Assembly (NCBI GenBank): GCA_964472395.1
Contig: CAYYMM010000001.1
Span: forward strand, 36,069-100,068
Source of the DNA: an uncultured bacterium
GTDB lineage: Bacteria; CSSED10-310; CALFER01
Length of the DNA: 64,000 bases
Reading direction: 5' to 3'
Part shown: positions 10,565-47,622 of the stretch, piece after piece
How the letters are laid out: each line of letters starts with the position of its first letter
Numbering within the stretch: position 1 is the stretch's first letter
Translations under genes and position numbers: made by a program
The notes under the pieces: generated by a model
Seen by the model: the letters and a program-made list of their open reading frames with translations, nothing else
Told to the model about the DNA's origin: nothing
Database searches by the model: none

Positions 10565-10579
10565 GAGAAGCTCCTGGTG

Positions 10580-14174
<3,595 letters not shown>

Positions 14175-14180
14175 AGAGAA

Positions 14181-26466: not shown

Positions 26467-26483
26467 TATCTGAATGATCCTGA

Positions 26484-26513
26484 AGCCCCGGACCTCGTCC
26501 GGGGCTTTTTTTT
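26484..26513 (+). terminator. Rho-independent terminator
   Basis: agccccggacctcgtccggggct followed by T8, 18 nt after the stop at 26466. Confidence 0.8.
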
Positions 26514-26613
26514 GGGGTGCGCCCGGAACGGCGCACCGATCCGGGCCCGGACCGTGCAGCTTGACGATGCCGGGAAAATATCCGACAATCGCTCCCCGGT
26601 CTGGAGGTTGACA

Positions 26614-30366: not shown

Positions 30367-30382
30367 GGAGAAAGAGAACCGG

Positions 30383-31425: not shown

Positions 31426-32889
31426 ATGAAAATACTGCTGATCATCCCGCCCGGCGGATACTATGCGGAACGATGGAGCGGAGGCGTGTTGATGCCGCCG
31501 CTCGGAATCGGATACGTTGCCGCATCGCTCGAAAACACCGCTCATGACGTTCGCCTGCTCGATGCCCACGTCGGAAGAATGACGGATCGTGACGTCCAAT
31601 TGGTAGTTGAAACCGAAAAACCAGATGTGGTCGGCTTGACATTCACGACAGAAAACCGTTTTGAGGCATTTGCGACGGCTCGCGCCATCCGTGAGGCAGC
31701 GCCCGGGTGTCATCTGACAGCCGGAGGCCCTCATGTTTCACTCGCCGCTCAGGATACGCTCGAGGGGGTGTCCGTCTTCGATTCGGTGGTGGCAGGAGAA
31801 GGTGAGATCACGATGGTGGAGCTGGCGGAAGCGCTGTCGACCGGCCGTGAGCAAGATCTGAGCAAAGTCGGAGGCCTCGTGTACCGCGATTCAGACGGCA
31901 TCATCCGGTCGAACCCAGGCCGCGAACGCATCATGGATCTCGATTCCATCCCCTTCCCAGCCCGCCACCTGTATCCTCCGATGTCGGAATATCATTTTCA
32001 GTTCGACGTACCGGGAAAGGGTATCCGGCAGTTCTCGAATCTGATGACCAGCCGCGGCTGTCCCTGCGCGTGCAATTTTTGCGCGACCCCGAAGGTGTGG
32101 GGTCGTCAGGTTCGGATGCGGTCGCCTGAGAACATCATGTCCGAGATCGATCTGATGGTGGAGCGGCATGGCGCGCAGGCGTTGTGGTTTTTCGACGATA
32201 CGTTCAATTCGTCGCCCAACCGCGTCCGGAAGCTGTGTGCGATGATCCGTGACCGGCAATACGACCTTCCGTGGTTCTGTGAGGTTCGGGTCGATCAGAT
32301 GTCAAAGGAATTACTGGCGGAAATGCGCGAGGCCGGCTGTTACACGATCGGGTTCGGGGTCGAATCCGGCTCGCAACGCATCCTCGATGATGTCGTCGGA
32401 AAGCACCTCAAGCTGGAAAAAGTGCATGAGTTGTATGAATGGTGCCGCGAGTTGGATGTGATTGCCAATCCATTTTTCATTCTGAGTCACCCGACCGAGA
32501 CCTGGGAAGAGGCGCGATTGACGATCGATCTGATTCGTAAATTTAAGGAAGGCGCACAGGTGTCGATGGCGTTCATGCATGTTTATCCCGGCACGGAACT
32601 CGAACGTGAGGCCCGTCGGATCGGCACGCTGCCATCGGATTTCAAATGGCATCAGGATGGCCGGACAGACGTGAAAACCCTCCCGTCGGCTCAAGGGAAT
32701 GTCCCGATTTTCCTGGATAAACTGTCCTGGTCGCAGGTGTCGGATCTCTTGTTCGAGTGGGCCGAGATGCAGCATTATTCGGTTTGGAGGAAAATCCCCA
32801 AAGTGCTCCGATCCATCCGCTCGATCGATGATGTCAAACGGTATGGCATCATGGGTTGGCGTTATCTGCGGAGACGGCTTTCTCTGTGA
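31426..32889 (+). CDS. Cobalamin-binding radical SAM enzyme (class B), paralogue 1
   Basis: 487 aa. N-terminal B12-binding Rossmann-like domain (MKILLIIPPGG...) and radical SAM cluster motif TSRGCPCACNFCATP. Confidence 0.8.
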   Translation: MKILLIIPPGGYYAERWSGGVLMPPLGIGYVAASLENTAHDVRLLDAHVGRMTDRDVQLVVETEKPDVVGLTFTTENRFEAFATARAIREAAPGCHLTAGGPHVSLAAQDTLEGVSVFDSVVAGEGEITMVELAEALSTGREQDLSKVGGLVYRDSDGIIRSNPGRERIMDLDSIPFPARHLYPPMSEYHFQFDVPGKGIRQFSNLMTSRGCPCACNFCATPKVWGRQVRMRSPENIMSEIDLMVERHGAQALWFFDDTFNSSPNRVRKLCAMIRDRQYDLPWFCEVRVDQMSKELLAEMREAGCYTIGFGVESGSQRILDDVVGKHLKLEKVHELYEWCRELDVIANPFFILSHPTETWEEARLTIDLIRKFKEGAQVSMAFMHVYPGTELEREARRIGTLPSDFKWHQDGRTDVKTLPSAQGNVPIFLDKLSWSQVSDLLFEWAEMQHYSVWRKIPKVLRSIRSIDDVKRYGIMGWRYLRRRLSL

Positions 32890-32948
32890 CGCGACAGGGA
32901 ACCGGGGCTTCATTGTAAACAGTTCTCCGTTCCATTATTCTCAAAGAT

Positions 32949-35060
32949 ATGCATCTCGATAATCTCTCCGGAATGCAGATCCGCGAATATCGTGTGATCG
33001 AAAAACTCGGTCAGGGCGGAATGGCGACGGTGTTCAAGGTCGAGCATGTCTTGTTGCGCACGTTTCGCGCGATGAAGGTGATCCGACCGGTCAAGAACCA
33101 AGATGCGCAGTATGTTCTGCGTTTCGAGCGCGAAGCTCGTGTACTTGTCAGCCTCGACCACATCAACCTTGTGCGCGTCTATGATTTTTTTCAAGAAGAG
33201 GGGTGCCTGTTCCTGATCATGGAATATGTGCCCGGTGAGAGCATGGAGGTGCGGCTGCGAAGAACACATGTGTTTTCGGCACGTGATGTGATCGAGATTC
33301 TCTCGCAGGCCTGCGAAGGCTTGCATGTCGCTCATCAAGCCGGCATCGTGCATCGCGATCTGGCGCCGGACAATCTCCTGATCATGCCGCTTTCCGATGG
33401 GTGTGAACGAATCAAGGTCATTGATTTCGGCATTGCAAAGGATGTGACTGAGAGTCAGACGGATGGGCTGACCGTGATGGGCAAATTTGTCGGTAAACTG
33501 GCGTATTGTTCACCGGAACAGGCTGCCGGAAACGCGCTGGATCAACGCAGCGACATCTATTCATTGGGCTTGGTCGCCCATCGAGCCTTGACGGGACGCA
33601 TCCCGTTCCATCCCAAATCCCCGTTCGAAGCACTCGCCCTGAGGCAGGTTCAGGATGCGCCGACGCTGTCGGAAAGCCGACCGGATGGACGATTCCCGGA
33701 CAGGTTGGAGGCAGCCGTGGCGCGAGCGCTCAAGCGAGATCCTCGTGAACGGTTTCAGCGTGTGCTGGAGTTCCGGGATGCACTGCGCGATGTCATGGGT
33801 GAATGTGAGGCGGCGAACGAAGACACTCAGTTTCGTACCACATCGAAAGCGGCGAAACAGATTCCTGGATCAGAGTCGCTGTCCGACCGGATCGAGCCCG
33901 ACGGGACTGACGATCGGACAATCGAGGGGCAACGCGCCGCCGTTCCGATCGAAGTGGATCTGGATCGCCTGGAGACCTCGGTTCGCGATTTCCCCTGGGG
34001 TATCTTCATTGTGATTGCTCTGGCTGTTGCCGCATTCGTAATCGGCTGGTATCAAATCTCACACTACGGGAAGCAGGCGCCGACGATGCCGATACCGCCG
34101 ACGATTTCTGTTTCGTCGCCGACTCATACGATGACGCCTGAAGACACCGAGACACCCTTGCCGACGATGATGGATACTCCGACCATGACCCCGGAGCCCC
34201 TCCCGGAAACCCTTCCCATCCAGACTCAATCTCCCGTCAACACTCGACCAGAACCGACGACCGCCGACTCAGACCGAACTCTTGCGATCGTGAAGGCAAC
34301 CGCTGAGGCTGAAAAAGCCCGCTGGGTCTCTGCTCCCACAGACGTGCCGTTGGCGCGGATCGCGCACGGCGCGGTCGTGATCGGCAGTGATCCCGATGAA
34401 CCCGGGAGGCGCGATGACGAATCGGTTTGGGCGGTTGGAATCAGCAGGGATTATCAGGTATCTGTCACCGAAGTGACTCAGGCCCAGTATCTTGCGGTCA
34501 TGGGCCACAATCCCAGCCGGAATAAAGGGCCGGATTATCCCGTCGAGAGTGTCACGTGGTTCGATGCGCTCCGGTTCTGCAATGCGCTGTCGATCAAGCA
34601 GGGGATCAAGCCGGCCTATGAGATCACGAAGGATGGAGATAGCATCGAGGTGAGCTGGCTGCCGAATTCCAGCGGATACCGTCTGCCGACCGAGGCGGAA
34701 TGGGAAACGGCGGCGCGTGCCGGCAGAAAGACGCCATTTACGGTCGGGGGCAGGCTCACACAGGGGCACGCGAATTTCGACAATCCTTCCGGAATTAAAA
34801 CAGTGCGCTGTTACGAACCGAATGCGGCCGGGATATATGATGTCGAAGGGAACGTGCGGGAATGGTGTTGGGACGGGTATGGCGAATATGGAACCGAGCC
34901 AGTGACCGATCCGTCGGGACAAGCGGCTTCATCGCGGAGAGTGGTGCGGGGCGGGAGTTTCCGAACGAAGATGGAGGGATGCCGGCTGGCGGGGCGGGAT
35001 TCCGAGGAGGCGGGGAAACGTTCCGACGACATCGGATTCCGGGTGGTGCGGAACCCGTGA
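32949..35060 (+). CDS. Ser/Thr protein kinase fused through a TM helix and PT-rich linker to a C-terminal FGE-sulfatase (formylglycine-generating-enzyme family) domain
   Basis: Kinase motifs HRDLAPDNLL and DFGIAK. TM helix GIFIVIALAVAAFVIGW. FGE-family motifs VTWFDALRFCNALS, GYRLPTEAEWE, NVREWCWDGY, RVVRGGSF. Confidence 0.85.
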   Translation: MHLDNLSGMQIREYRVIEKLGQGGMATVFKVEHVLLRTFRAMKVIRPVKNQDAQYVLRFEREARVLVSLDHINLVRVYDFFQEEGCLFLIMEYVPGESMEVRLRRTHVFSARDVIEILSQACEGLHVAHQAGIVHRDLAPDNLLIMPLSDGCERIKVIDFGIAKDVTESQTDGLTVMGKFVGKLAYCSPEQAAGNALDQRSDIYSLGLVAHRALTGRIPFHPKSPFEALALRQVQDAPTLSESRPDGRFPDRLEAAVARALKRDPRERFQRVLEFRDALRDVMGECEAANEDTQFRTTSKAAKQIPGSESLSDRIEPDGTDDRTIEGQRAAVPIEVDLDRLETSVRDFPWGIFIVIALAVAAFVIGWYQISHYGKQAPTMPIPPTISVSSPTHTMTPEDTETPLPTMMDTPTMTPEPLPETLPIQTQSPVNTRPEPTTADSDRTLAIVKATAEAEKARWVSAPTDVPLARIAHGAVVIGSDPDEPGRRDDESVWAVGISRDYQVSVTEVTQAQYLAVMGHNPSRNKGPDYPVESVTWFDALRFCNALSIKQGIKPAYEITKDGDSIEVSWLPNSSGYRLPTEAEWETAARAGRKTPFTVGGRLTQGHANFDNPSGIKTVRCYEPNAAGIYDVEGNVREWCWDGYGEYGTEPVTDPSGQAASSRRVVRGGSFRTKMEGCRLAGRDSEEAGKRSDDIGFRVVRNP

Positions 35061-35255
35061 ACGAATCCGGCAGACAGAGCGCTTGCTGTTAGTATCGGAA
35101 TATAGTAGAATTAACTGTTAACGCTCTGATCGCCCTTTCGATCAAAGCGACGGCGGAATTTCCGCAACGTGTTGATTTTTAAGAATATCGGGTGCCTGCG
35201 AAGCGTTCATCAACAGGGATGAGCGGTCGGAGGTAGGATTTGAAAAGGAGGAGTT

Positions 35256-37634
35256 ATGAACAAATGGACGTTCCTGGCGATGCTGCTCGCGGTCGTCGCA
35301 TCGATCGGATCGGTGCGTGCCGACATCATCGCGGGGTGGGATTTTGAAGATCAGAATCTGAGTGTTGATCAGACCACTCCGAACAACCTGGACAATGTGA
35401 TCACGACGACATCGACCGCCACGGTGGTTTACTCGGCGGGCGCCGGCGGGAGTCTTTACGCCGCTTCGTGGTCCGACATGGCTAATCTGAATTTGAGTTA
35501 CATCGAGGTGCCGGTCGATACGACGGGATACAGCAATATTGCGTTCATCTTCAGCGCGCGTACCTCGAATACCGCATCCAAGTACTGGAAAGTGCAGTAT
35601 TCCTCGACAGGATCAGCCGGTCCTTTCACAGATGCCACACAGATCATCGAACAACAGAGCACTGCCTGGACGCTCAATAACGTCTTTGATCTCTCAACCG
35701 TCACCGATCTCAATGACAACGCCGACGTCGTGTTCCGCATCGTGGCGACCGACAGCACCGGAACGGGCAGCGGGACCTGGGTTCAGGCCGATGGCGAAGG
35801 CGCACCGGCATCCACCGGCACCTTCCGTATCGATGACGTCAAGATCCAGAACGATGTGACTGTTCCTCCGACCAGCACGCCGGCCCTGACCAACACGCCC
35901 GGCCCGCCGACCAATACTCCCGGCCCGCCCACCGCGACACCGACCGGTCCGACTCCGACGCCTCCTCCGGTGACCGCGATCAAGATCAACGAAATCTACA
36001 TCAATCCTCCCGGAACGGACATCGGCTGTTATGTTGAGCTGTATTTCCCCGGCGGATCGAGTCTTGATGGGTATACACTCGTCGGCGTCAACGGCAATGA
36101 CGGCGCGGACTACGGTTCGATCAGCCTGTCCGGACAGTCGATCCCGGCGGACGGGTACTTTGTCATCGCTCAGGACACCAACGTCGCGAACGCCGATCTG
36201 ATAGATGTTCTGGCCAACTATCAGAACGGGCCGGACAGCATTCAGCTTCGACAGGGCGCAACGGTCATCGATGCGATCGGATACGGCGATTTTACCGGCG
36301 GAACGTTCTTCGCGGGAGAAGGCACGGCAGCTCCGGCATACTTCACGGGAGAGCAATCGCATTCGCGTCTGCCGGATGGCTTCGATACAAATGACAACGT
36401 GGTCGACTTCCAGGCCGGTCAGCTCACTCCGGGATCTGCGAATCTTCCCGGCGGCGGCAGCGACACGCCTACTCCGGGAGCTACCGCGACCGTGCCGACT
36501 CCGACTCCAACCGGGCCGACCCCAACGCCTCCCCCGGTCTACAACATTAAAATCAACGAAGTGCATGTCAATCCGGACGGCGCTGATGTGGGATGCTACG
36601 TCGAACTCTACATGCCGACCGGCACGACCGTCAGTCTGGACGGTTACTATCTGGTCGGTGTGAACGGTTTCGACGGCATCGATTATCAGGCCATCCCGCT
36701 CACCGGAACGATCGGCCCCGGACAGTACTTCGTCGTGGCACAGGATACGTCCGTGCCCAATGCCTCGATGATCGATGAAAATGTCAATTTCCAGAATGGT
36801 CCGGATAATATTCAGCTCCGTGCCGGTATGAGCACGGTGGTGGATGCGATCGGATATGGGACATTCCTTCCGACCGATACATTCGTCGGTGAGGGGACGC
36901 CGGTTCCGTATGCGAATCCCACCGGCAATCTCTCGCTGTCGAGACTTCCAAACGGTACCGATACGGAGAACAACTCGGTCGATTTCCAGAACGGCGAACT
37001 GACCGCGGGTGCCTCGAACGTTGCAGCCGGCGCCGCCACACCGACTCCGGGACCGTCGACTCCGACCGCAACTCCGACCCGGACTGCAACCCCCACCTTT
37101 ACTCCGCTTCCACCGACCCCCACACCCACGACGCCTCCAGGCAGCCCGACCTATACGGCAGTTCCGACGAACACTCCGACGAATACCCCGACAACGCCAC
37201 CGACGCACTCACCTACACCGACGAGCACAAGCGGCGGGCCGACGCATACACCTGCTCCCACAGAGACCCCCGATCCCTGCACGACACTCGGCGTCACACT
37301 CGAAATGCCGTCTCACATGTTCCATCCCGGCGATCCGTGCTATCTGAAGGCATTCGTCTGCAATCCGAACGCGGATACTTACAACCAGGTTCCGGTCTTC
37401 GTGATTCTCGAGGTCGGCGGGCAGTATTTCTTCGCGCCGAGCTTCACGAGCTTCGACCATTACACATTAAATGTGACACCGGGGATGCACCAACTCGATC
37501 CGCTCCCCCTATTCACATGGCCCTCGGGTGTCGGTTCCGCCGATGGCTTGACCTTCTATGGTGCGATGACGGATCAGGCGATCACGACTCTCTTCGGAGA
37601 ATTGGATACCTGGACATTCGGATGGGCCGAGTAG
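35256..37634 (+). CDS. Secreted protein with two LTD repeats, an N-terminal domain homologous to that of 23371..26466, PT linkers and the shared ~115-aa C-terminal domain
   Basis: 792 aa. Signal peptide MNKWTFLAMLLAVVASIGSVRA. LTD signatures begin IKINEIYINPPGTDIGCYVELYFPGG and IKINEVHVNPDGADVGCYVELYMPTG. C-terminal domain 37278..37634. Confidence 0.8.
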   Translation: MNKWTFLAMLLAVVASIGSVRADIIAGWDFEDQNLSVDQTTPNNLDNVITTTSTATVVYSAGAGGSLYAASWSDMANLNLSYIEVPVDTTGYSNIAFIFSARTSNTASKYWKVQYSSTGSAGPFTDATQIIEQQSTAWTLNNVFDLSTVTDLNDNADVVFRIVATDSTGTGSGTWVQADGEGAPASTGTFRIDDVKIQNDVTVPPTSTPALTNTPGPPTNTPGPPTATPTGPTPTPPPVTAIKINEIYINPPGTDIGCYVELYFPGGSSLDGYTLVGVNGNDGADYGSISLSGQSIPADGYFVIAQDTNVANADLIDVLANYQNGPDSIQLRQGATVIDAIGYGDFTGGTFFAGEGTAAPAYFTGEQSHSRLPDGFDTNDNVVDFQAGQLTPGSANLPGGGSDTPTPGATATVPTPTPTGPTPTPPPVYNIKINEVHVNPDGADVGCYVELYMPTGTTVSLDGYYLVGVNGFDGIDYQAIPLTGTIGPGQYFVVAQDTSVPNASMIDENVNFQNGPDNIQLRAGMSTVVDAIGYGTFLPTDTFVGEGTPVPYANPTGNLSLSRLPNGTDTENNSVDFQNGELTAGASNVAAGAATPTPGPSTPTATPTRTATPTFTPLPPTPTPTTPPGSPTYTAVPTNTPTNTPTTPPTHSPTPTSTSGGPTHTPAPTETPDPCTTLGVTLEMPSHMFHPGDPCYLKAFVCNPNADTYNQVPVFVILEVGGQYFFAPSFTSFDHYTLNVTPGMHQLDPLPLFTWPSGVGSADGLTFYGAMTDQAITTLFGELDTWTFGWAE

Positions 37635-37715
37635 GACACGATCGGGCCAGATAAGACTCTATGATTTCACTGCGGGCATCGATTTGATCGATGCCCGTTG
37701 TGTTTACATGTGTGA

Positions 37716-39254
37716 CTAAGAATCTGCGGGATGCTTGCCAGTGAGATCGAACAGAATGACCGAAACACCGATGAAGCTACGTTCTTCGATTTTTTCGTAT
37801 CGGGTCTCCAGCCATTCCAGGACTTTCTTGTTGTGTTGCGTGTAAAAATCGACACATCCGTCCAGTTCGAAACACCAGTCAGTTTTGTAGACCCAAAGTC
37901 GTTGATGCGAATCGAGCCATTCAGGGGCCAGGTTTGTGGAGCGCACTTCGGGGTACTGCTGCACGATATCGTCGAGATTGAATTTGTGGATCAAATCCTT
38001 CCGATACTCGTCGTCGATGTCGAGGAAGTATGCGGGAGGAAACTGATTGAGATACACGAGATAGTACCAGACGGGAAACGTGCCACTTTCACAGGTTGTT
38101 CCGATGATATCTCCGGGCAGGAATTGTGTATCGATCCATCGGGATGCTTCACGAAATTCCTTCCGGGGCTGTATCTGCGAACGCATGCCGCTTTTGTAAT
38201 CGTTCCGATAATGGTAACTCAGCGTGAAGGCGTGAATCATGGTCAGAGCGGACAAAACGAAGATGGTGAGTTTTCGTGACCCAAACCTGTTGATTCCGTG
38301 TGCAATCGCAATCAGAAATGGCGCGAGAGCGAAGATGGTGTATCGAGGGACGAAGATGCAGGTCGGAAGAAGCAGCGATGTGAGCAAGGCGAGGCTGACA
38401 GGAATGATTCCTGCTGCGATCAGATAGTGTTGAAGAACAGGCTTCTGCCGGTCCAGGATTCCGAACAGCGCCGCCGAAGCACAGGCGAGACCTACTGTGA
38501 TGTAGACGATACGGGAGGCTTCATACCCTGAGCTGTACACCGACACAAGCTCCCAAACCGTTCGGATTGACACCGGCGGACACCAGAATGTCGCGGTGAT
38601 GATCCCTTTTGAAAGTGTGAAGAAACGGGCCAGGTAAGGAGCAAAAAAGAGAGACAGAAGGGTGCCAGCCAGCAGACTTCGCTTCACTGCGATTTTGAAG
38701 GGCAAAAACAGAAACAGGCCTAGGATCTGTCCGGCGAGAAAGAACAGAGAATAGTAATGGGTGTAAAGAAAGGCGGTGTCAACGAGGATCCAGCCGGCGA
38801 GATCAATAGAAGAACCAGATTCAGTCCAGCGTACGAAAAACAGCCAGGAAAGCACGGCAAGCAGCAGCGCGAGAGAATACATCCGGAGTTCCCTGGAGTA
38901 ATAAACAGCAAACGGCGATACCGATAGCAGTAAAGAAGCAGTCAATGCGGTTCGATGCGTCGAGATGTGTAAGGTGAGAAAGTACAGAGCGGGGATTGCT
39001 GCAACTCCGAATATTACCGGTAATGTCCGGAGCCCGAATTCGGAAGTAAAAAACAGGAGCCATAGGTTTAGAAAGACATGAAAGAAAGGCGGATGAAACG
39101 ACCGACCAACCACACTGCTGTAAATGGATTCGGTTTCATCCATCCAGAACGAATAATCGCCGAGGCGATACAGTCTGAGTCCGATTGCCACTGTTGTGAT
39201 AACCGCAAGGAGTACAAGGGAACGTCGATATAAAGGAATCGATCTGTGGTTCAT
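37716..39254 (-). CDS. GT39/GT83-type membrane glycosyltransferase (ArnT / protein O-mannosyltransferase-like)
   Basis: 512 aa polytopic protein. N-terminal loop motif YRLGDYSFWMDETESIY is typical of lipid-linked sugar-dependent GT-C enzymes. Confidence 0.7.
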   Translation of the reverse strand: MNHRSIPLYRRSLVLLAVITTVAIGLRLYRLGDYSFWMDETESIYSSVVGRSFHPPFFHVFLNLWLLFFTSEFGLRTLPVIFGVAAIPALYFLTLHISTHRTALTASLLLSVSPFAVYYSRELRMYSLALLLAVLSWLFFVRWTESGSSIDLAGWILVDTAFLYTHYYSLFFLAGQILGLFLFLPFKIAVKRSLLAGTLLSLFFAPYLARFFTLSKGIITATFWCPPVSIRTVWELVSVYSSGYEASRIVYITVGLACASAALFGILDRQKPVLQHYLIAAGIIPVSLALLTSLLLPTCIFVPRYTIFALAPFLIAIAHGINRFGSRKLTIFVLSALTMIHAFTLSYHYRNDYKSGMRSQIQPRKEFREASRWIDTQFLPGDIIGTTCESGTFPVWYYLVYLNQFPPAYFLDIDDEYRKDLIHKFNLDDIVQQYPEVRSTNLAPEWLDSHQRLWVYKTDWCFELDGCVDFYTQHNKKVLEWLETRYEKIEERSFIGVSVILFDLTGKHPADS

Positions 39255-40720
39255 TTCTGGTTATTGGAGGAAAAACTTCCCTGGACGAGATACTTCCAGA
39301 ATTTCCGGAGTGATTTCAGTGTTCGTACGGCCTCGTCCGGCCTGGTCAGGATCTGCCGGAGCTTAAAGAGGATGTATCGCGGTCTGAGATAGAACTCGCG
39401 CCTCGCCCGGTCACAAAAGGCAACCAGTTGTGTATGACTGAGTTCCGGGCGATTGACGACGCAGTTGTGAAGACCTTCCGGTGTCAGCCAGCATGAGAAA
39501 TCGTTTGTTGCCAGATAACCACTCGACCGCGCCCATTCAAATGCTTCCGTTCCCGGATAGACCATCAGCGGGAAAAACTGGGCGGTATCGGTATTCAATT
39601 CCTTGGCAAACGCCAGTGTGGCCTCGAGAGTTTCTTCGGTTTCCTCGGGGAGTCCGACGAGATAACACCCGTGTACCATGATTCCCGCACGCTTCGCGTC
39701 CCGGACAAACCGTCGGCTCTGTTCGAGGGTCAGTTTCTTGTTCATCCGATCCAGGATCGTCTGACTGCCGCTTTCGAATCCGACACACAACAGGCGGCAT
39801 CCTCCCTTTTTCAACCATTTCAGCGTTTCAAAATCGACATCAGCCCGCGAATTCGCAGTGAACCCGATACGAATCCCGCGTTCGATTTTTCGTCGCATCA
39901 ATGCCTGGCAACGGACCGCGTCCAGCGTCATCGCATCATCCTCGATGAAAAGCTCGCGAACCCCCTCAAAATGAGTCTCGACGAATTCCCATTCATCCAG
40001 AACCTTCTCGATGTCCCGGAACCGCACCCGTCTGCCGGTCAGGTTCTGCGGATAGACGCAGTAAATGCAGTGATGCAGGCATCCCCGGCTGGTGATGAGC
40101 GTGACTTCGGGGTATCGGGCGATCGAGTAGAAATAATCCTTGAAATTCAGAAATTTTCGATAGACTTCCGCCACCATCGGCAGGTCATCGAGCTGTTCGT
40201 TGAGGGGGCGAGGAGCCGTGCGGATGATGTCGGAACCGAGGCGGAAAGCGAGTCCCGGAATGGTGCGCCAGCGGTCCCGAGGGTCGTGCAGGTGTCCGGC
40301 CAGTTCGCAGAGTGTCAGCTCATATTCGCCGATGACGACCGCATCCGCGGACGCATTCCCGCGGAGAGTCTCCTCTGGAACAGCCGAAACATGCACGCCA
40401 ACGAACACCGTGATCGTGTCCGGGCATGCTGTCTTGCACGCAGCTCCGACGGCCAGATCGTTCGCGATGCTCGGGGTCGATGTCGCGATCACGATCAGAT
40501 CGGGTTTGCTCCGCTCGACATGTTCCGCGACATGCCCGTGCGTCCAGTTCCGGGGCACGGCATCGATCAGTTCGACGTCGTGGCCATCTTGGATCAGAGC
40601 GCCGGCGGCGTAAGCGAGCCACATCGGGTAGTAGATTGTTCCGCTCTTGGTGACGGCCGGTGAGCGTTGTTCGCGTGAGAACTGCTGGAGGAACGGTGGG
40701 TTGAGACACAGAACTTTCAC
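39251..40720 (-). CDS. Cobalamin-binding radical SAM enzyme (class B), paralogue 2
   Basis: 489 aa. B12-binding N-terminal domain (MKVLCLNPP...GHDVELIDA) and TSRGCLHHCIYCVYP. Overlaps the GT39 gene by 4 nt. Confidence 0.8.
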   Translation of the reverse strand: MKVLCLNPPFLQQFSREQRSPAVTKSGTIYYPMWLAYAAGALIQDGHDVELIDAVPRNWTHGHVAEHVERSKPDLIVIATSTPSIANDLAVGAACKTACPDTITVFVGVHVSAVPEETLRGNASADAVVIGEYELTLCELAGHLHDPRDRWRTIPGLAFRLGSDIIRTAPRPLNEQLDDLPMVAEVYRKFLNFKDYFYSIARYPEVTLITSRGCLHHCIYCVYPQNLTGRRVRFRDIEKVLDEWEFVETHFEGVRELFIEDDAMTLDAVRCQALMRRKIERGIRIGFTANSRADVDFETLKWLKKGGCRLLCVGFESGSQTILDRMNKKLTLEQSRRFVRDAKRAGIMVHGCYLVGLPEETEETLEATLAFAKELNTDTAQFFPLMVYPGTEAFEWARSSGYLATNDFSCWLTPEGLHNCVVNRPELSHTQLVAFCDRARREFYLRPRYILFKLRQILTRPDEAVRTLKSLRKFWKYLVQGSFSSNNQK

Positions 40721-41064
40721 TTGGCACCTCGCAAATCCAGCGTCAACCTATCGTGAACGCGGCCGTCTGTCAAAAAAAAGTGGAACCTTCTCCAGTTGTC
40801 CGGCGTTTCTTAGATAGCAACCTCATGGAAGCCCCCCAGCTTCCAGAAATCCTCCTCAAAGTTTCCCTCTCATTGTCCTGCCAGACATCAGGCTCCCCGA
40901 ACCGGGGAGCCTGACCCTCCTTGTAGGCTGTCCGCTTGTGCGCCTGAATTGACAGGGTCGCGCGAATTTCGTTTACTGTTCCCGGCGCCACCCATCGTTG
41001 CCCGCATGACACCAGAAAAAGGAGTCCGCGAATCGCAAAACCGGACCTCTGAGGAGACAAACCC

Positions 41065-42243
41065 ATGCTGACATTGCTCAGACACGCGAATGTTTTTACG
41101 CCGGAATCGATCGGAATCAAAGATGTTCTGCTCGGGGGCGGCCGCATCCTGTCGATAGCCGATGAGGTGCCGGACACCTTTCCCGGTATGGAGATCGTGG
41201 ACTGCACCGGAAAGACGCTCGTTCCGGGCCTGATCGATGCCCATGTACATATTGCGGGCGCTGGCGGAGAGGGCGGTCCGGCCACACGCACCCCCGAAAT
41301 GACACTCGGAAGTTTTATCGACGCCGGAGTGACAACCGTCATCGGCATGATGGGCACAGACGGCATCACACGCCATGCAGACGCGGTACTTCAGAAAGCC
41401 CGGGCGCTCACGGATGAGGGGATCTCTGTCTATATGCTCACCGGCTCCTACCAGATTCCGACACCGTCTCTGACGGGAGATGTGATGAAGGATATTGTGT
41501 ATGTACCCGAAGTGCTCGGTGTCGGGGAGGTGGCAATTTCAGATCACCGCAGTTCCGCGCCTCTGCCGCATGAACTCGTACGGCTCGCCAAACAGGTTCG
41601 AGTCGCCGGAATGATCGCCGGAAAACCTGGTGTCCTGTGTCTGCATCTCGGAGATGCTCCCGGTGCATTCGAACCGATCTTCTCCGCCGTGAAACTCGAT
41701 CCCGTTCCGCTTAAACACTTCCTTCCGACACATTGCAACCGAAGCAGGGACGTGTTTGAGCACGCCATCGAGTATGCCCGGTCAGGAGGCTGGGTTGATT
41801 TTACGACCAGCGCATATCCGTTTTACCCCGACGAAGAGGTCAAGCCATCCCGGGCCTTCAGCGAGATGCTTCGGGAGGGCATTCCCGTTACGCGTATGAC
41901 GTTCAGCTCGGATGCTGGCGGCAGTTTACCCGATTTCGATTCCGAAGGAAGACTCAGGGGACTTCAGGTCGGCGTGTCCAGATCGATCTTGACCGAACTT
42001 CAGGATCTGGTCGTCCAGGAATCTCATTCACTTTCAATCGCATTGATGCCCGTGACGCGGGTCCCCGCAGACTTGTTCGGATTGAAAACAAAAGGTCGCA
42101 TCGAAACGGGAGCAGATGCCGATCTGCTGGTTCTGGATACGTCACTGGAGATCGTTCATCTGTTTTCCCGGGGGCAGATGATGGTGCGGGACGGTAAACG
42201 GATGGTTTTCGGACGATTCGAGCGTCACCCGGATGTCACTTGA
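41065..42243 (+). CDS. iadA: Isoaspartyl dipeptidase
   Basis: 392 aa. Near-collinear similarity to IadA: LIDAHVHIAGAGGEGGPATRTPE, ISDHRSSAP, LPTHCNRS. Confidence 0.85.
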   Translation: MLTLLRHANVFTPESIGIKDVLLGGGRILSIADEVPDTFPGMEIVDCTGKTLVPGLIDAHVHIAGAGGEGGPATRTPEMTLGSFIDAGVTTVIGMMGTDGITRHADAVLQKARALTDEGISVYMLTGSYQIPTPSLTGDVMKDIVYVPEVLGVGEVAISDHRSSAPLPHELVRLAKQVRVAGMIAGKPGVLCLHLGDAPGAFEPIFSAVKLDPVPLKHFLPTHCNRSRDVFEHAIEYARSGGWVDFTTSAYPFYPDEEVKPSRAFSEMLREGIPVTRMTFSSDAGGSLPDFDSEGRLRGLQVGVSRSILTELQDLVVQESHSLSIALMPVTRVPADLFGLKTKGRIETGADADLLVLDTSLEIVHLFSRGQMMVRDGKRMVFGRFERHPDVT

Positions 42244-42291
42244 ATTTCATTCGGATTCTTGAGTATAGTAGAACGAGTGAAAGGGAAGGAT

Positions 42292-42879
42292 ATGGTCAGA
42301 TTCACATGCGGACATTGCGGAAAACCGTATGAGTTCAAATTGCTACCCATTCCTGACGAGGGCGCTCAGTTTCAGTGTGCGGAGTGCGGAAAAACCTCCA
42401 GACTCATCAATCTGAATGGAAAAGTGGTTTGCGAGCCGGAGGATGACCAGGATGCCGGACACCAGTCCGCGACGCTCGAAATGGCCGACAGTTTCCGATC
42501 CGCGCTGGATGACGAGTTGTCAACGGATGAACTGGAATCCCGCCTTCAGGGCATGTATCCGGATATGCCGTTTGAAATGGAGATCGTGATCGGGGTGATC
42601 GAAGGCCCCGACAAAGGAACGACTTATCCGCTCAGGGTGCCAATCGCGTCGATCGGGCGTATGGGATGCGACATCACTCTGAATGATGGTGAGATATCGT
42701 CCGAGCATTGCCAGATTGAAATTTACGGTAATCACATGACGATTCTGCGCGATCTTCAGAGTACCGGCGGGACATACCGCAACGGCATCCCGACCACACT
42801 GACCTGTTTGCGCCCCGGAGATCGCATTCTGATCGGCAAAACGACGCTGGTCTATATTCAAAATCCGAAACGGAGCTGA
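42292..42879 (+). CDS. Zinc-ribbon plus FHA domain protein
   Basis: N-terminal CxxC-x17-CxxC (FTCGHCGK...CAECGK). C-terminal FHA motifs (GRMGCDITLNDGEISSEHCQI, TGGTYRNG). Start trimmed to ATG 42292 after an AAGGGAAGGA RBS. Confidence 0.75.
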   Translation: MVRFTCGHCGKPYEFKLLPIPDEGAQFQCAECGKTSRLINLNGKVVCEPEDDQDAGHQSATLEMADSFRSALDDELSTDELESRLQGMYPDMPFEMEIVIGVIEGPDKGTTYPLRVPIASIGRMGCDITLNDGEISSEHCQIEIYGNHMTILRDLQSTGGTYRNGIPTTLTCLRPGDRILIGKTTLVYIQNPKRS

Positions 42880-42896
42880 TAGAAAGCGGTTTGCCG

Positions 42897-43286
42897 TCAG
42901 GGCATGACCTTGCACGCATCGACCGGGCAAACCTTTGCGCATTTTCCGCATGCAATGCACAATCCGGGATCGATCTCGTATATGGATCCTTCCGAAATCG
43001 CATGAGTCGGGCATTCCGGCTGACATGTCCCACAGGCGATGCATTCCTTGGTAATGATATAGGGCACCCGGTCCGCGGGGATCTTGCCTTCCGCTTTCAA
43101 TGCTTCAGCGTGAACCCGGGCGATTTTCTGATTCCATTCAGCCCGAAGTGATTTGATGGTCATTCGGAGTTCGTACAGTGAATTGCGAATCTCATCGATA
43201 TCATCATTATGATAACGGGTGGTGGAGCGGCTTTTCAGTGCGATCACCAGTGCGATGACCGCGATAGCGAGACTGAGATAGATCAT
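42897..43286 (-). CDS. Membrane-anchored 2x[4Fe-4S] ferredoxin-domain protein
   Basis: 130 aa from MIYLSLAIAVIALVIAL (AGGAGG 8 nt upstream). Coiled segment, then two CxxCxxCxxxCP motifs. The longer ORF-track version overlaps the next gene. Confidence 0.65.
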   Translation of the reverse strand: MIYLSLAIAVIALVIALKSRSTTRYHNDDIDEIRNSLYELRMTIKSLRAEWNQKIARVHAEALKAEGKIPADRVPYIITKECIACGTCQPECPTHAISEGSIYEIDPGLCIACGKCAKVCPVDACKVMP

Positions 43287-43365
43287 GGGAATGACCTCCT
43301 TCCGTGGCCGCAGATTAGAGCGAATATATATTTGAGTCAAGAGCCGCTCTGGGACATAATGACAC

Positions 43366-45144
43366 GTGCGACGGAGGTTCTCTCGAATGGCCGATGCCGG
43401 TTCCATGCGATTTTCTTCCATCCACGGTGTGATCGCCGGCGGATTGGCGATCGGCTGCGCCCGAGGCATCATCGAGGGGATCTCGCTATACGTTTCACAC
43501 CCGGTCCGACTCCCGGTCGACTCCCTGATCCGACTATGCTTCCAGACAACGGTTCTCTACGCTGTCGTCATCGCATGCATCGGAACGCTTCTTGTCACAA
43601 TATTCCGCCGCACAGGACTGCTTCCTGAACGCGGCCGGTGGCTCTGGCCGCTCCTGTTTCTCGTTCCAATCGTCCTGATCGATCTCAATGGCTGGACTCA
43701 CCGCCAACAGACCGCGTTTCGGGAATCGGTCTTACCGATGAGTCCTTCCCGGACGGACTATCCGGATATCCTCCTCTTCACGCTCGATACCTGTCGCGCT
43801 GATCGGTTGGGCTGTTACGGATATCCGACGGGATCCACGCCGATGATCGATGCGCTTTCGCGTCGGGCGACGGTTTTCGTCGATGCCATCACGACGATAC
43901 CGGTGACGACCAGTGCGCATGCGACGATCATGACCGGATTAGAGCCTATGACGCATGGAAGCCGCTTCAATGCGGTTCCCATCCATCGACGCTTTAAGAC
44001 GCTCGCCGAGCGGTTGCAAGATGAGGGGTATCGGACCGGCGCATTCATCGGCGCGTTCCCTGTGGCTGCGGAGGTGTCCGGGTTGGATCAGGGGTTCCAT
44101 GTTTACGAGCAGACTCTGACGCCGCAGTATCTGCATCCCCTGTTGTATCAATCGACGCTGCTCGCCCCGTTACGCTCAATCGGGCGCTTTCGTCCCGCCG
44201 AACGTCGTGCGGCGCAGATCGAGCCATGGGTCGATGCCTGGTGGCGCACGCTTCCTCCGGATGCACCTCGGTTCACATGGCTGCATTACTACGATCCGCA
44301 CGCACCGTACGATCCTCCCAAGAATTGGCGACGCTACTTCACGGGGGATTCGAGCGTTCGCACCACTTCGATCTGGCGGATCCATTCAATGAACCATGAA
44401 GCACCTCCGACAGAAGATGAAATCCGGACGAATCTTGCGTTGTATGACGGAGAGATCGCTCAGACAGATCGCGCCATCAGCAGGATTCTCAATGTACTCG
44501 CATCCGCAGGCCGTCTGGACCGGACCTGGATCGTCATTCTGGCCGATCACGGTGAGAGTCTGGACGAACACGAGTATTACTTTTCACATGGCGACAACAC
44601 GTTCGAGCCGTCTTTGCGGATCCCGTTTCTGATCGTGCAACCGCTCTTTGCATCCAGGATAACGCAGGATGCGAGAGGTTTGACCGGAGGATTGATGGCG
44701 GAGCTTGCAGGGAATGCCGATCTGGTCCCGACCCTTCTGGGAGTGCTCGGAATATCGACCCCGGAGATGACGGACGGCCGGAACCTGATCAAAGACGACG
44801 GGAAAGATCTCTCGGACAGACTGTTGATCTGTGAATCTGGTTCAGGGGTTTACACTGAAGCGCATCGAGTCTCAGCGGAAAAAATCAGTCGGAAGGAGCG
44901 GACAGTGCGAACCGAACGGATGAAGCTGATCCGATCTGCCGATGGGCGCTCATCTGCTTTTGATCTCGACGATGACCCTCGTGAGCTTCGGCCGATCGAC
45001 GGCACGCAGGATCCGCACGTGATCCGGCTTGGAGAGATATTGGATACGGCCATTGCGCGGGATCTGGAAGATCCGCGATACCAGACGATGTCGCGGGATC
45101 AGGAAACAGTTGATCAATTACGCGAACTGGGATATGTGGAGTGA
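43366..45144 (+). CDS. Membrane sulfatase-like hydrolase/transferase (alkaline-phosphatase superfamily, Thr nucleophile variant; LtaS/EptA-like rather than a true sulfatase)
   Basis: N-terminal TM helices, then catalytic domain LLFTLDTCRADRLGCYGYP...PVTTSAHATIMTG. Thr replaces the Cys/Ser of the sulfatase CxPxR motif. Confidence 0.7.
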   Translation: MRRRFSRMADAGSMRFSSIHGVIAGGLAIGCARGIIEGISLYVSHPVRLPVDSLIRLCFQTTVLYAVVIACIGTLLVTIFRRTGLLPERGRWLWPLLFLVPIVLIDLNGWTHRQQTAFRESVLPMSPSRTDYPDILLFTLDTCRADRLGCYGYPTGSTPMIDALSRRATVFVDAITTIPVTTSAHATIMTGLEPMTHGSRFNAVPIHRRFKTLAERLQDEGYRTGAFIGAFPVAAEVSGLDQGFHVYEQTLTPQYLHPLLYQSTLLAPLRSIGRFRPAERRAAQIEPWVDAWWRTLPPDAPRFTWLHYYDPHAPYDPPKNWRRYFTGDSSVRTTSIWRIHSMNHEAPPTEDEIRTNLALYDGEIAQTDRAISRILNVLASAGRLDRTWIVILADHGESLDEHEYYFSHGDNTFEPSLRIPFLIVQPLFASRITQDARGLTGGLMAELAGNADLVPTLLGVLGISTPEMTDGRNLIKDDGKDLSDRLLICESGSGVYTEAHRVSAEKISRKERTVRTERMKLIRSADGRSSAFDLDDDPRELRPIDGTQDPHVIRLGEILDTAIARDLEDPRYQTMSRDQETVDQLRELGYVE

Positions 45145-46508
45145 CCATGAAAGTCCTCTTCGTCAAGCCCTGCTGGAATTATCCGATCGACAAGGGCGAT
45201 TCAACTTACAATCGCAACTGGCCACCGTTGTCGCTGTTGAATTGTGCCGCTCTGGTCCGGCGTGAAGGGATCGATGTTGAGGTCGTGGATGCCGCGGCTG
45301 AGCGTTTATCGCCCGAGGCTGTCGCACTGAGGGCCGCGGAATGTGACAAGGTATTTATCACTTCCGCAAGTCTCGATCGGTGGCAATGCCCGAACATCGT
45401 GATCGATCCGTTTCTAAAAACCGTGTTCGCTCTGAAGAAGGTCTGTCGCGAGGTGTATGTCATGGGAACGCACGGCACGGTGCGCCCCCGCGAGATACTC
45501 GATGCAACCGGCGTCACGGCGGTCATTGTCGGCGAACCGGAAGAGGCGGTTCTGTCGATTTGTCGGGGAATAACGCTCGGTTTGTTGCAGGGGGTGGCTT
45601 ATGAGCAGGATGGTCGGTTTTGTTTGATACCCCAGCAGCACGATCTCGACCTGACGGCCCTCCCGATCCCCGCATACGATCTGATTGACCTGAAGCAGTA
45701 TCGATATGAGGTTCTGGGTGAGCGTTTTGCGTTGATCGAGGCATCGAGAGGATGTCCATTCAACTGTATTTTCTGTGTCAAATCGATGTATGGCAGCGCA
45801 TATCGGTGCAAAACCATCGAGCAGGTCATAAGGGAAATCGATTATGTCATCGATGTCGCTCGTGCGCAGACCATCTATTTCATCGATCTCGAGTTCACCG
45901 TCAATCGCGACATGGTGAAAGCGGTTTGTGACCACTTCATCCGGAAGAAGTCGGGGGTTGAGTGGTGCTGCCAGACACGGACGGATTCAGTCGATGAGAC
46001 GATGCTGGCGATGATGAAAGAGGCCGGCTGCCGAATCGTGCATTTCGGTGTTGAAACAGGTTCCGAGCGGATTCGGGCGAATCTGAAGAAGGGGATCACG
46101 AGGGAGCAGATCGAAAATGGTTTGAGAATGACACGGGTGGCGGGATTGCAGACGGTTTGCTTCTTCATGTTCGGGTTACCCGGGGAAACGATAGCGGACA
46201 TGGAGGAAACGATTCGATTTGCCAAGAAACTGAACCCGACCTATGCGTCGTTTCATATCGCGTTACCTTACCCGGGGACCGAGTTTCATGAGATGGCGCG
46301 GGAAAACATCGGGACGGAGTTGTTTCCAAAGGCGTATACGGGCGAGGTATGTTATGATGATTTGATTCGCGTCGCGAGACGTGCGTTTCGGTCTTATTAT
46401 CTGAGGCCGAGATACATTGCGGGTCGGATGAAGGATCGTGATTTCAGAACATTTTACAGGCAGGCCCGTTTTTTTATTTCGTATCTGATTCATCGATTAT
46501 GGAGTTAA
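45141..46508 (+). CDS. Cobalamin-binding radical SAM enzyme (class B), paralogue 3
   Basis: 455 aa. B12-binding N-terminal domain (MKVLFVKP...GIDVEVVDA) and ASRGCPFNCIFCVKS. Confidence 0.8.
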   Translation: MTMKVLFVKPCWNYPIDKGDSTYNRNWPPLSLLNCAALVRREGIDVEVVDAAAERLSPEAVALRAAECDKVFITSASLDRWQCPNIVIDPFLKTVFALKKVCREVYVMGTHGTVRPREILDATGVTAVIVGEPEEAVLSICRGITLGLLQGVAYEQDGRFCLIPQQHDLDLTALPIPAYDLIDLKQYRYEVLGERFALIEASRGCPFNCIFCVKSMYGSAYRCKTIEQVIREIDYVIDVARAQTIYFIDLEFTVNRDMVKAVCDHFIRKKSGVEWCCQTRTDSVDETMLAMMKEAGCRIVHFGVETGSERIRANLKKGITREQIENGLRMTRVAGLQTVCFFMFGLPGETIADMEETIRFAKKLNPTYASFHIALPYPGTEFHEMARENIGTELFPKAYTGEVCYDDLIRVARRAFRSYYLRPRYIAGRMKDRDFRTFYRQARFFISYLIHRLWS

Positions 46509-46512
46509 TGTA

Positions 46513-47622
46513 ATGGCCGAATCGGAAGGATATTTTAAAACAAGGATGAGTTTTGAACCGAGGCGGGATGCGATCTGGAAACCCGTCGTCCGGTATCTCG
46601 AACGCTATATCCCCGGCGAGTCCCGAATTCTCGAACTGGGCGCCGGATACTGTTCATTCATCAATGAAGTTCATGCGGGGGAAAAGCATGCGCTGGACTC
46701 GTCGGATATCATTCGCCAGTATGCGGCGGAGTCGGTACGAATCCATGTGTGCGACTGCGCACAACTCCGTCCTGTTGAAACAGCGTATTTCGATGTGGTT
46801 TTTTCAAGTTTTCTGTTTGAACACCTCACCCGCGACCATCTGGACCGCTTGATGCGCGAGCTGCGTCGAATCATTAAACCGGGAGGACTCATCATCACTC
46901 TCCTCCCAAATTACAAGTATATCTATCGTCATTACTTCGACGACTACACGCATGTTCAGGTATTCAGTCATCTGAGCTTCTCAGATTATCTGACGGCGCA
47001 GGGTTTCGACGTGACGCGGGTTGAGGGACGCTTTCTGCCGTTTTCGTTCAAGTCGCGACTTCCCAAATCGGCGTTCCTGACCGCTCTGTATCTCCGATCA
47101 CCATGGAAACCCTTTGCCGGCAATATGCTCGTGATCGCCAGGAATCCGGACACACCAGCGGAACGCGCACCGGTTGTGCGCGAGCAATCACGGCGGCGTG
47201 AGCCTCCGCCGCGTTCGCCACGCCCGTTTCTGGACGAACCAGTCGCTCCTGTGTCGATTCTCAAGGATCAGAAAACAATGACCGATCGAAACGAGCATGG
47301 ATACCGGCAGACGTCGAGATCCGGTCGGTATCCCGTCCGACGAGATCCGCCGAGGCATGTTCCGGCATCGGACACCGCGCGCGAACATCGGCCCGGAGGC
47401 ACTCCAAATCCACCCCGAAGGGATCTTCCTCAACGTCGCCCGGACATCCCATCCAAACACGGCCCAGACGGATCCGGGCTCCGAAGGCCGCGCCGCGAAG
47501 CGCCGCGTCCGCCCGAAATCAAAGAGCCCCAGCAAGGCACTTCTTTCCCGAAACCGGAATACATCCCCCGCCCGGATGTGAAACCCCGACCCGAAAACAC
47601 CGACGAAAAATCGCTCGTTTGA
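46513..47622 (+). CDS. Class I SAM-dependent methyltransferase with a ~150-aa Arg/Pro-rich low-complexity C-terminal tail
   Basis: Motif I ILELGAGYCSF and LIITLLPN. The tail from about 47140 is rich in R, P and E (…RREPPPRSPRPFLDEP…PRRDLPQRRPDIP…). Confidence 0.7.
   Translation: MAESEGYFKTRMSFEPRRDAIWKPVVRYLERYIPGESRILELGAGYCSFINEVHAGEKHALDSSDIIRQYAAESVRIHVCDCAQLRPVETAYFDVVFSSFLFEHLTRDHLDRLMRELRRIIKPGGLIITLLPNYKYIYRHYFDDYTHVQVFSHLSFSDYLTAQGFDVTRVEGRFLPFSFKSRLPKSAFLTALYLRSPWKPFAGNMLVIARNPDTPAERAPVVREQSRRREPPPRSPRPFLDEPVAPVSILKDQKTMTDRNEHGYRQTSRSGRYPVRRDPPRHVPASDTAREHRPGGTPNPPRRDLPQRRPDIPSKHGPDGSGLRRPRREAPRPPEIKEPQQGTSFPKPEYIPRPDVKPRPENTDEKSLV

Follow-up and report, generated by a model that had tools for sequence, protein, structure and literature searches.

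Three divergent class-B-type radical SAM genes in a CSSED10-310 chromosome and their possible role in tailoring envelope sugars

The 64,000-nucleotide stretch of DNA analysed here, hereafter the window, comes from an uncultured bacterium of the CSSED10-310 lineage (assembly GCA_964472395.1, contig CAYYMM010000001.1) and encodes, within 15 kb, three radical S-adenosylmethionine (SAM) enzymes of the B12-binding, or class-B, type, which we call rSAM1, rSAM2 and rSAM3. An earlier note on this DNA had listed three open reading frames (ORFs) of this kind and read them as paralogues that carry out a series of radical modifications of an envelope glycoconjugate or lipid. The ORF listing and Pfam bear out the genes themselves; lengths are given in amino acids (aa):

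31426-32889, plus strand: rSAM1, a B12-domain radical SAM enzyme of 487 aa (PF02310 69.2 bits, PF04055 69.3 bits)
39251-40720, minus strand: rSAM2, an HpnJ-like B12-domain radical SAM enzyme of 489 aa (PF02310 63.1 bits, PF04055 75.1 bits)
45147-46508, plus strand: rSAM3, a B12-domain radical SAM enzyme of 453 aa (PF02310 33.1 bits, PF04055 94.4 bits)

All three proteins combine a B12-binding domain (PF02310) with a Radical_SAM domain (PF04055), each above its Pfam gathering score, the B12-binding match of rSAM3 being borderline (33.1 against a gathering score of 32.1 bits). The CxxxCxxC motif of the [4Fe-4S] cluster (C212/C216/C219 in rSAM1 numbering) is invariant in a three-way alignment, and every protein begins with MK[IV]L, as had been noted. 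The longer signature proposed at the same time, [ST]SRGCxxxCx[FY]C, holds from SRGC onwards in all three, whereas its first position does not, because rSAM3 reads A-SRGC. An ORF for rSAM3 does exist at 45141..46508; its homologues are uniformly 453 aa long, however, which makes the ATG at 45147 the probable start and not the GTG at 45141. By our own estimate, three such genes would be expected to fall within 15 kb by chance 0.01-0.09 times, assuming a 3-Mb genome with 10-20 of them randomly placed.

The proteins share only about 29% pairwise identity, whereas each belongs to a large orthologue family of its own whose members are 42-55% identical in distant phyla. Judged by these sequence comparisons, they are ancient superfamily relatives and not close or recent paralogues, each family being older than the phyla in which it occurs. 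Orthologues of rSAM1 occur in Aminicenantes and Acidobacteriota (47-51% identity), Armatimonadota and Schekmanbacteria; those of rSAM2, with more than 575 species-level matches, in Nitrospirota, Desulfobacterota, Planctomycetota, Fibrobacterota, Chloroflexota and a few archaea; and those of rSAM3 in Methylomirabilis, Planctomycetes, Verrucomicrobia and Aenigmarchaeota. The closest named relatives are metagenome-assembled genomes (MAGs) of candidate division CSSED10-310, at 64-72% identity.

Membership of known families was assessed with NCBIfam models that carry curated cutoffs (HpnJ, BchE, HpnR, AprD4, ladderane, PhpK, BzaD and families acting on ribosomally synthesised and post-translationally modified peptides, or RiPPs), and none of the three proteins reaches any of these cutoffs. 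They are class-B-type radical SAM enzymes without known function, as the earlier note had it, and by these scores they lie outside characterised clades such as BchE or the hopanoid methylases. Against the HpnJ model TIGR03471 (cutoff 577.6 bits) rSAM2 scores 354.1, rSAM1 171.5 and rSAM3 167.5 bits; the rSAM2 alignment spans the full length of the model and its next-best family, BchE, reaches 167 bits, so that by sequence rSAM2 is clearly closest to HpnJ. The BchE model TIGR02026 (cutoff 481 bits) gives 153-167 bits for the three proteins, the ladderane model TIGR04072 (cutoff 360 bits) 113-140 bits, and the AprD4 diol dehydratase model NF033070 (cutoff 500 bits) 111, 78 and 132 bits for rSAM1, rSAM2 and rSAM3, respectively. 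Scores against the hopanoid methylase HpnR (TIGR04367) and the RiPP methylases (NF050148, TIGR03975) lie far under the curated cutoffs.

The best NCBIfam match of rSAM1 is in fact the RiPP enzyme ApyD, at 181 bits, with about 171 bits for HpnJ, and this raises the question of whether the three could be radical SAM methyltransferases that modify peptides (RiPPs) or proteins. All three also match the RiPP model TIGR03975 weakly. The scores (87-181 bits for ApyD across rSAM1-3) nevertheless fall far short of the respective cutoffs (750 and 282 bits), a search of the 344-nt gap beside rSAM2 gave no convincing small ORF resembling a precursor, Pfam scans revealed no RiPP protease or transporter genes near rSAM1-3, and the synteny described below is dominated by glycosyltransferases. 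We regard a role in peptide or protein modification as highly improbable.

Structural comparison leads to a different relative. Among solved structures, AprD4 (PDB 6FD2) is nearest in sequence to all three proteins, and it is likewise the best fold match of the AlphaFold2 models of rSAM2 (pLDDT 90.2) and rSAM3 (pLDDT 87.8), with TM-scores of 0.71-0.77 (0.77 for rSAM3). Next come TsrM, MgmA, CysS, TokK and OxsB, aligned over their full length, and these matches confirm the class-B fold for rSAM2 and rSAM3 as modelled. The similar length and the place of AprD4 at the head of both searches suggest that at least rSAM1 and rSAM3 might be cobalamin-independent, AprD4-like sugar 1,2-diol dehydratases; a short-chain dehydrogenase/reductase (SDR), whose gene directly adjoins rSAM1 in the window, in its relative L009 and in the more distant locus L171, would then reduce the keto product to complete a net deoxygenation. 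We consider this account unlikely. The AprD4 family model yields only 78-132 bits against its cutoff of 500, for each protein less than HpnJ or BchE; few class-B structures exist, which makes a best match in the PDB weak evidence; and the AprD3 partner is brought in by analogy.

The genes around the three enzymes fall into units A, B and C, listed below with their flanking genes. The neighbour genes that had been named from the sequence (methyltransferases, GT4, acetyltransferase, flippase-like protein, PMT_2, sulfatase-like enzymes and kinases) all prove real by Pfam and NCBIfam:

26512-27372, plus strand: class I SAM methyltransferase that opens unit A (Methyltransf_11/25 match)
27369-28547, plus strand: GT4 glycosyltransferase, unit A (Glyco_transf_4 and Glycos_transf_1 matches)
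28568-29374, plus strand: hexapeptide-repeat (WcaF/WbbJ-like) acetyltransferase, unit A (PF00132; NCBIfam WbbJ and WcaF below cutoff)
29371-30366, plus strand: LPG_synthase_TM/flippase-like membrane protein, unit A (PF03706 146 bits; TIGR00374 56 bits, cutoff 43.2; 6 predicted transmembrane helices)
30308-31369, plus strand: extended SDR, unit A (nearer to HpnA/OleD/SdmB-type reductases than to sugar-nucleotide epimerases)
32949-35060, plus strand: Ser/Thr kinase with one transmembrane helix (344-372) and an FGE-sulfatase-like domain, in the same orientation as unit A (Pfam)
37716-39254, minus strand: PMT_2 (ArnT/PMT-like GT-C) membrane glycosyltransferase (PF13231 28.9 bits, cutoff 26.1; at least 8 predicted transmembrane helices)
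42897-43286, minus strand: 2x[4Fe-4S] ferredoxin, 129 aa in L001 and L009 (Fer4 families), divergent from unit C
43366-45144, plus strand: membrane-anchored enzyme of the alkaline-phosphatase/sulfatase superfamily, unit C (PF00884 130 bits; hydrophobic N-terminus; Thr nucleophile)
46513-47622, plus strand: class I SAM methyltransferase, extended at its C-terminus by about 200 aa, unit C (Pfam)
47629-49740, minus strand: second Thr-type sulfatase-superfamily protein (PF00884 83 bits; PYTISST motif; N-terminal signal or anchor)
49747-52020: Ser/Thr kinase preceded by a long TPR region

Unit A runs on the plus strand through the methyltransferase, GT4, acetyltransferase, flippase-like and SDR genes to rSAM1. 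Beyond it, in the same orientation, come the kinase/FGE-like gene, a doubtful member of the unit in functional terms, and a gene for a lamin-tail-domain protein. The SDR probably starts downstream of 30366; it is the gene that had been called an epimerase beside rSAM1, and its presence there stands, whereas its affinity shifts to the HpnA/OleD/SdmB-type reductases. Unit B, on the minus strand, consists of rSAM2 followed by the PMT_2 gene, which overlaps the rSAM2 stop codon by 4 nt. Unit C, on the plus strand, comprises the first sulfatase-like gene, rSAM3 and the second methyltransferase, separated by gaps of 2 and 4 nt. Long hairpins at 26482 (26482-26508, terminator-like, just upstream of the first gene of unit A) and 37672 bracket unit A; counts from promoter and terminator scans did not exceed shuffled expectation, and the hairpins serve only as hints.

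Whether these units form one biosynthetic locus can be judged from relatives. L009, about 80% identical at the amino acid level, keeps the entire layout apart from the PMT_2 gene, and the arrangement is therefore not an assembly accident. The flippase-like gene, the kinase/FGE-like gene after rSAM1 and the second sulfatase-like gene (also present in L092) are all retained there, and the position of the ferredoxin gene is conserved in L091. The sulfatase-like gene adjoins rSAM3 in L009 and in three of four close metagenome relatives and is present in all five, while the methyltransferase directly follows rSAM3 in L009 and in all four. On the 2.97-Mb contig of a further relative (70-74% identity), however, some 480 kb separate the orthologues of rSAM1 (near 359 kb) and rSAM2 (near 842 kb); the clustering of three such genes in 15 kb is therefore lineage-specific.

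The conserved layout in L009 speaks for the idea that the three enzymes act in sequence on one envelope glycoconjugate and that 26-50 kb is a single biosynthetic locus, and so do the arrays in which two, three or four B12-type radical SAM genes, divergent from one another, stand beside rSAM3 orthologues on unrelated metagenome contigs (such as L159 6001-10234, L169 10091-12973 and L101 10870-13343). The arrays are accompanied by genes for GT2 glycosyltransferases and GT-C-like proteins; glycan loci that stack more than one enzyme of this kind are therefore seen repeatedly. The transcription units of the window nevertheless number three and occupy both strands, and unrelated genes are interspersed with them and surround them. 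Kinase and lamin-tail-domain genes stand between rSAM1 and unit B, and units B and C are kept apart by genes for an isoaspartyl dipeptidase (449 bits, above its NCBIfam cutoff) and an FHA protein. Together with the 480-kb separation in the relative, and with the fact that each family keeps its own, different set of partners elsewhere, this weakens the notion of one series of modifications on one glycoconjugate, and we judge it quite unlikely.

The specific local pairings drawn in the earlier note are weakened as well; that of rSAM2 with PMT_2 is real in its 4-nt overlap and is missing from the nearest relative. The identical contig L001 also carries the PMT_2 gene, whose GC content is 0.50 (neighbours about 0.57) and whose GC3 is 0.57, both clearly below the neighbours. 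The lower GC content and the absence from L009 suggest a recent gain in this strain or a loss in the relative. The protein also matches NCBIfam Agl23 at 43.6 bits, under the cutoff of 126. The 2.97-Mb relative and other CSSED10-310 MAGs carry a fourth type of B12-type radical SAM gene back to back (divergent) with the rSAM2 orthologue (L005 8415-9869, L008 8425-9858, L010-L012), which reaches 260-272 bits with the HpnJ model and is about 30% identical to rSAM1-3. PMT_2 genes often lie near this pair, and the window has no fourth type at that site.

In unit C, the sulfatase-like protein carries PVTTSAHATIMTG in place of C/S-x-P-x-R (PVTTSAH), as the earlier description of a Thr-type enzyme implied, and the second sulfatase-like protein is also of the Thr type; both thus have Thr where true sulfatases have the formylglycine-forming Cys or Ser. 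The Thr nucleophile of both, together with the hydrophobic N-terminus of the first, makes them look more like LtaS/EptA-type phosphotransferases than true sulfatases. A pairing of rSAM3 with the sulfatase-like gene as anaerobic maturase and sulfatase was ruled out, given that rSAM3 has no SPASM match and a B12-type N-terminal domain and that neither sulfatase-like protein has a formylglycine motif.

The evidence on substrate comes mainly from the neighbours of orthologues in other phyla, which we compared by longest-ORF calling in fetched loci, BLASTP clustering and annotation of cluster representatives. For rSAM2, with 78 loci from many phyla, the tightest partner is a membrane GT2 of about 330 aa with two to three C-terminal transmembrane helices and a predicted ArnC/GtrB-like layout; it lies immediately downstream on the same strand in 45/75 loci and within 6 kb in 63/78. 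Further genes across the 78 loci encode GT9 heptosyltransferase-family proteins (32), GT4 (15), LpxL-like acyltransferases (14), Phosphodiest-family proteins (12) and WaaL-like ligases (5). Redox genes also recur within two genes of rSAM2 on the same strand, namely DUF362-Fer4 proteins with a C-terminal 4Fe-4S ferredoxin domain (22 loci), thioredoxins (10) and flavin reductases (7). The DUF362-Fer4 and thioredoxin genes sit directly upstream of the rSAM2 orthologue (DUF362 for example in L017, L020, L023, L040 and L042), and their products may be dedicated reductants of the family. Fibrobacterota have a thioredoxin and a protein of about 109 aa of unknown kind in this upstream slot. Identification of the GT2 as HpnI or HpnB was rejected by NCBIfam, its best matches being EpsD, MftF and PgaC-like models, all under cutoff.

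Distant rSAM3 orthologues are likewise accompanied by a small GT2 and/or a GT-C-like membrane protein (51 of the 65 loci). The GT2, about 240 aa long and mostly soluble, occurs in 46 loci and is adjacent in 41; the GT-C-like partners are DUF6541/YfhO-like proteins in 26 loci, many with 8-14 transmembrane helices, and PMT_2 proteins in 10.

The rSAM1 orthologue of L171 sits inside a Wza/Wzc/Wzx polysaccharide locus together with homologues of the unit A genes for GT4 (32% identity), methyltransferase (28%), SDR (37%) and acetyltransferase (48%), the methyltransferase homologue lying next to the orthologue and the SDR homologue directly after it. L170 has the order GT4, rSAM1, methyltransferase, and the GT4 homologues of L170 and L171 are 32-34% identical. 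Comparative genomics thus ties each of the three families to glycan or glycolipid genes in distant phyla, in line with the glycan/lipid context proposed before. An unfused FGE-like gene occurs near the rSAM1 orthologue of L170. A search for rSAM1 orthologues in viral contigs returned generic relatives of at most 32% identity, unusable for synteny; 80 viral-classified contigs (IMG/VR, L174-L253) encode B12-type radical SAM proteins 22-32% identical to rSAM1, none of which is an orthologue.

The same comparisons bear on a lipid alternative, namely that the enzymes act on the hydrocarbon part of membrane lipids and not on sugars, methylating, cyclising or cross-linking acyl or isoprenoid chains in the manner of HpnP/HpnR, Gmm, GrsA/B and the ladderane enzymes. 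Many characterised class-B radical SAM enzymes do act on lipids (PMC13459092), rSAM1-3 all score with the ladderane model, unit A includes an MprF-like lipid-flippase domain and an OleD/HpnA-like SDR, and LpxL-like acyltransferases appear in the 14 rSAM2 loci mentioned above. Moreover, in two CSSED10-310-like genomes (L172, L173) the genes downstream of the rSAM1 orthologue encode a DUF2179 protein and an acyltransferase of the PlsC type. We nonetheless hold hydrocarbon tailoring to be unlikely, given that a glycosyltransferase is the tightest and most frequent partner of both rSAM2 and rSAM3 orthologues, that no lipid-synthesis genes flank rSAM1-3 in the window and that the lipid-family models all score far under cutoff.

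On balance we think it rather probable, though far from assured, that the window is a chromosomal stretch with three separate operon-like modules, each with one class-B-type radical SAM enzyme that acts in the cytoplasm on a lipid-linked sugar of an envelope precursor. The families represented in the three modules differ from one another, and all of them are ancient and uncharacterised. Several observations weigh against this. The usual partners of rSAM2 and rSAM3 (membrane GT2, GT9, DUF362, LpxL-like, Phosphodiest, small GT2 and YfhO-like proteins) have no tblastn homologue in the window, the sole match being a weak one of 76 aa inside PMT_2, and the case for this organism therefore rests on orthology and not on local context. 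The local GT-C gene is the one that L009 lacks beside rSAM2. Only seven loci were examined for rSAM1, and these include the acyltransferase neighbourhoods of L172 and L173, as well as an Aminicenantes locus (L006) whose rSAM1 orthologue is without any glycan context. The ORF calling behind the synteny counts was crude. Finally, the B12-like domain of AprD4, the nearest solved structure, is not known to bind cobalamin, and we know of no sequence motif diagnostic of cobalamin binding; an Rfam scan of the window returned no match, and hence no cobalamin riboswitch.

Characterised enzymes give the proposal its precedents. HpnJ, with which rSAM1-3 share the two-domain architecture and to which rSAM2 aligns end to end at twice the score of any other family, is proposed to contract the ring of bacteriohopanetetrol-glucosamine to a cyclitol ether, and its gene is located with the GT2 gene hpnI (PMC13459092), much as rSAM2 orthologues adjoin a GT2. 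Unlike HpnJ, rSAM2 stays below the model cutoff and its orthologues adjoin a GT2 of another type; no HpnK-type deacetylase was seen, no hopanoid genes are found among the frequent neighbour clusters of the 78 loci, and the window has no GT2 and, in its large ORFs by Pfam and NCBIfam, no hopanoid genes (shc, hpnH, hpnI, hpnK). Photosynthesis genes are likewise absent from these ORFs. The archaeal calditol synthase Cds, which forms a cyclopentyl head group from lipid-linked glucose, is like HpnJ proposed to contract a hexose ring by a radical reaction, the hexose being already joined to a membrane lipid (PMC13459092); we liken it by its described chemistry, and here the host is bacterial and the neighbour genes differ. 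The cobalamin-dependent sugar C-methyltransferases MoeK5, GenK and GenD1 are class-B enzymes on sugars, and MoeK5, whose substrate is lipid-linked, co-clusters with HpnJ in sequence networks (PMC9204698); these enzymes belong to antibiotic pathways and are likened by description. AprD4 shares a B12-like N-terminal domain and a carbohydrate substrate with what is envisaged here, whereas it serves an aminoglycoside pathway and its family-model scores indicate similarity at the level of the fold only.

Surface glycosylation by three-component systems (ArnC/ArnT, GtrB/GtrA/Gtr-type and CsbB/YfhO) depends on a GT2 that loads a sugar onto polyprenyl phosphate and a GT-C enzyme that transfers it outside the membrane. 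By analogy, the rSAM2 and rSAM3 orthologues would fit such a scheme, their flanking genes encoding GT-C-like proteins and GT2s that match in size and topology, and the PMT_2 GT-C of the window overlaps rSAM2. The likeness is incomplete: the window is without the GT2 half, and our literature search found no radical SAM partner described in such systems. Taken together, the precedents of HpnJ, Cds and MoeK5 on lipid-linked sugars and the GT2/GT-C synteny make radical tailoring of lipid-carried sugars the most consistent reading.

The domain content, family separation and synteny statistics given above are observed, whereas the substrate class, cellular topology and chemistry in the following sketch of the reaction are inferred. 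Each enzyme would take as substrate a polyprenyl-phosphate sugar or glycolipid in the cytoplasm. The [4Fe-4S] cluster, reduced by a ferredoxin-type donor, would cleave SAM to give a 5'-deoxyadenosyl radical, which would abstract a hydrogen atom from the sugar. Plausible reductants are the ferredoxin of the window, a candidate electron donor, and the small Fe-S and redox proteins encoded next to the orthologues. The substrate radical might then be resolved by rearrangement or ring contraction, by cobalamin-mediated C-methylation or by AprD4-like dehydration; for rSAM2 the first of these, as proposed for HpnJ and Cds, would be favoured. Once tailored, the sugar would be flipped and then transferred or further decorated outside the membrane. 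Candidates for these last steps are the PMT_2 GT-C in the case of rSAM2 and the Thr-type phosphotransferase-like enzymes in that of rSAM3; for rSAM1 they are the GT4, the acetyltransferase and the flippase-like protein.

More tentatively, and as a suggestion that we ourselves consider doubtful, the rSAM2 and rSAM3 families, and perhaps rSAM1, could mark an undescribed and very widespread step of envelope biogenesis in anaerobic bacteria and some archaea, in which a monosaccharide is rewritten on polyprenyl phosphate before a GT-C enzyme transfers it to the lipopolysaccharide (LPS) core or another surface polymer; the window would then represent a lineage with three stacked modules. The rewritten sugar may be, for example, a ring-contracted carbasugar or a C-methyl sugar. 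What is new lies within a well-known enzyme class and consists of three uncharacterised families and a new partner logic, and literature searches found no paper that connects GT2/GT-C or LPS-core genes with a radical SAM enzyme of the B12 type. Class-B radical SAM enzymes are among the largest pools of unassigned enzyme chemistry, with functions that are hard to predict from sequence, and three orphan families here gain a concrete and testable substrate class in lipid-linked envelope sugars. The rSAM2-GT2 pair is found in MAGs labelled Desulfonema limicola, Fibrobacter sp. and Nitrospira sp., genera with cultured members that offer a better experimental entry than this uncultured genome. If the pair were confirmed, many anaerobic phyla would have radical-made structures in their surface sugars that current models of LPS and glycans lack.

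Other features of the region can be noted in brief. Two lamin-tail-domain proteins are encoded at 23371-26466 (1031 aa, hydrophobic segment C-terminal) and 35256-37634 (792 aa, hydrophobic segment N-terminal), the latter gene sitting between units A and B, and both are probably surface proteins. The two Ser/Thr kinase genes (32949-35060 and 49747-52020) flank the region and are both conserved in L009. The remainder of the window is ordinary chromosome (dnaN, recF, gyrB, gyrA, serS, pfk, glgC-like and two-component regulator genes), and for three large ORFs, at 4282-7806 (1174 aa), 978-2198 (406 aa) and 21148-22575 (475 aa), Pfam gave no match at E <= 1e-5. The dnaN, recF, gyrB and gyrA genes are consecutive on the minus strand at 8051-15770; dnaA is not adjacent to dnaN, and DnaA-box matches are not enriched in the window (11 against 8.7 expected), with two near-matches in the 486-nt gap that precedes the next gene. 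The GC content falls to 0.46 at 14-16 kb, around and beyond dnaN and including this gap, and the low-GC stretch could be an origin region.

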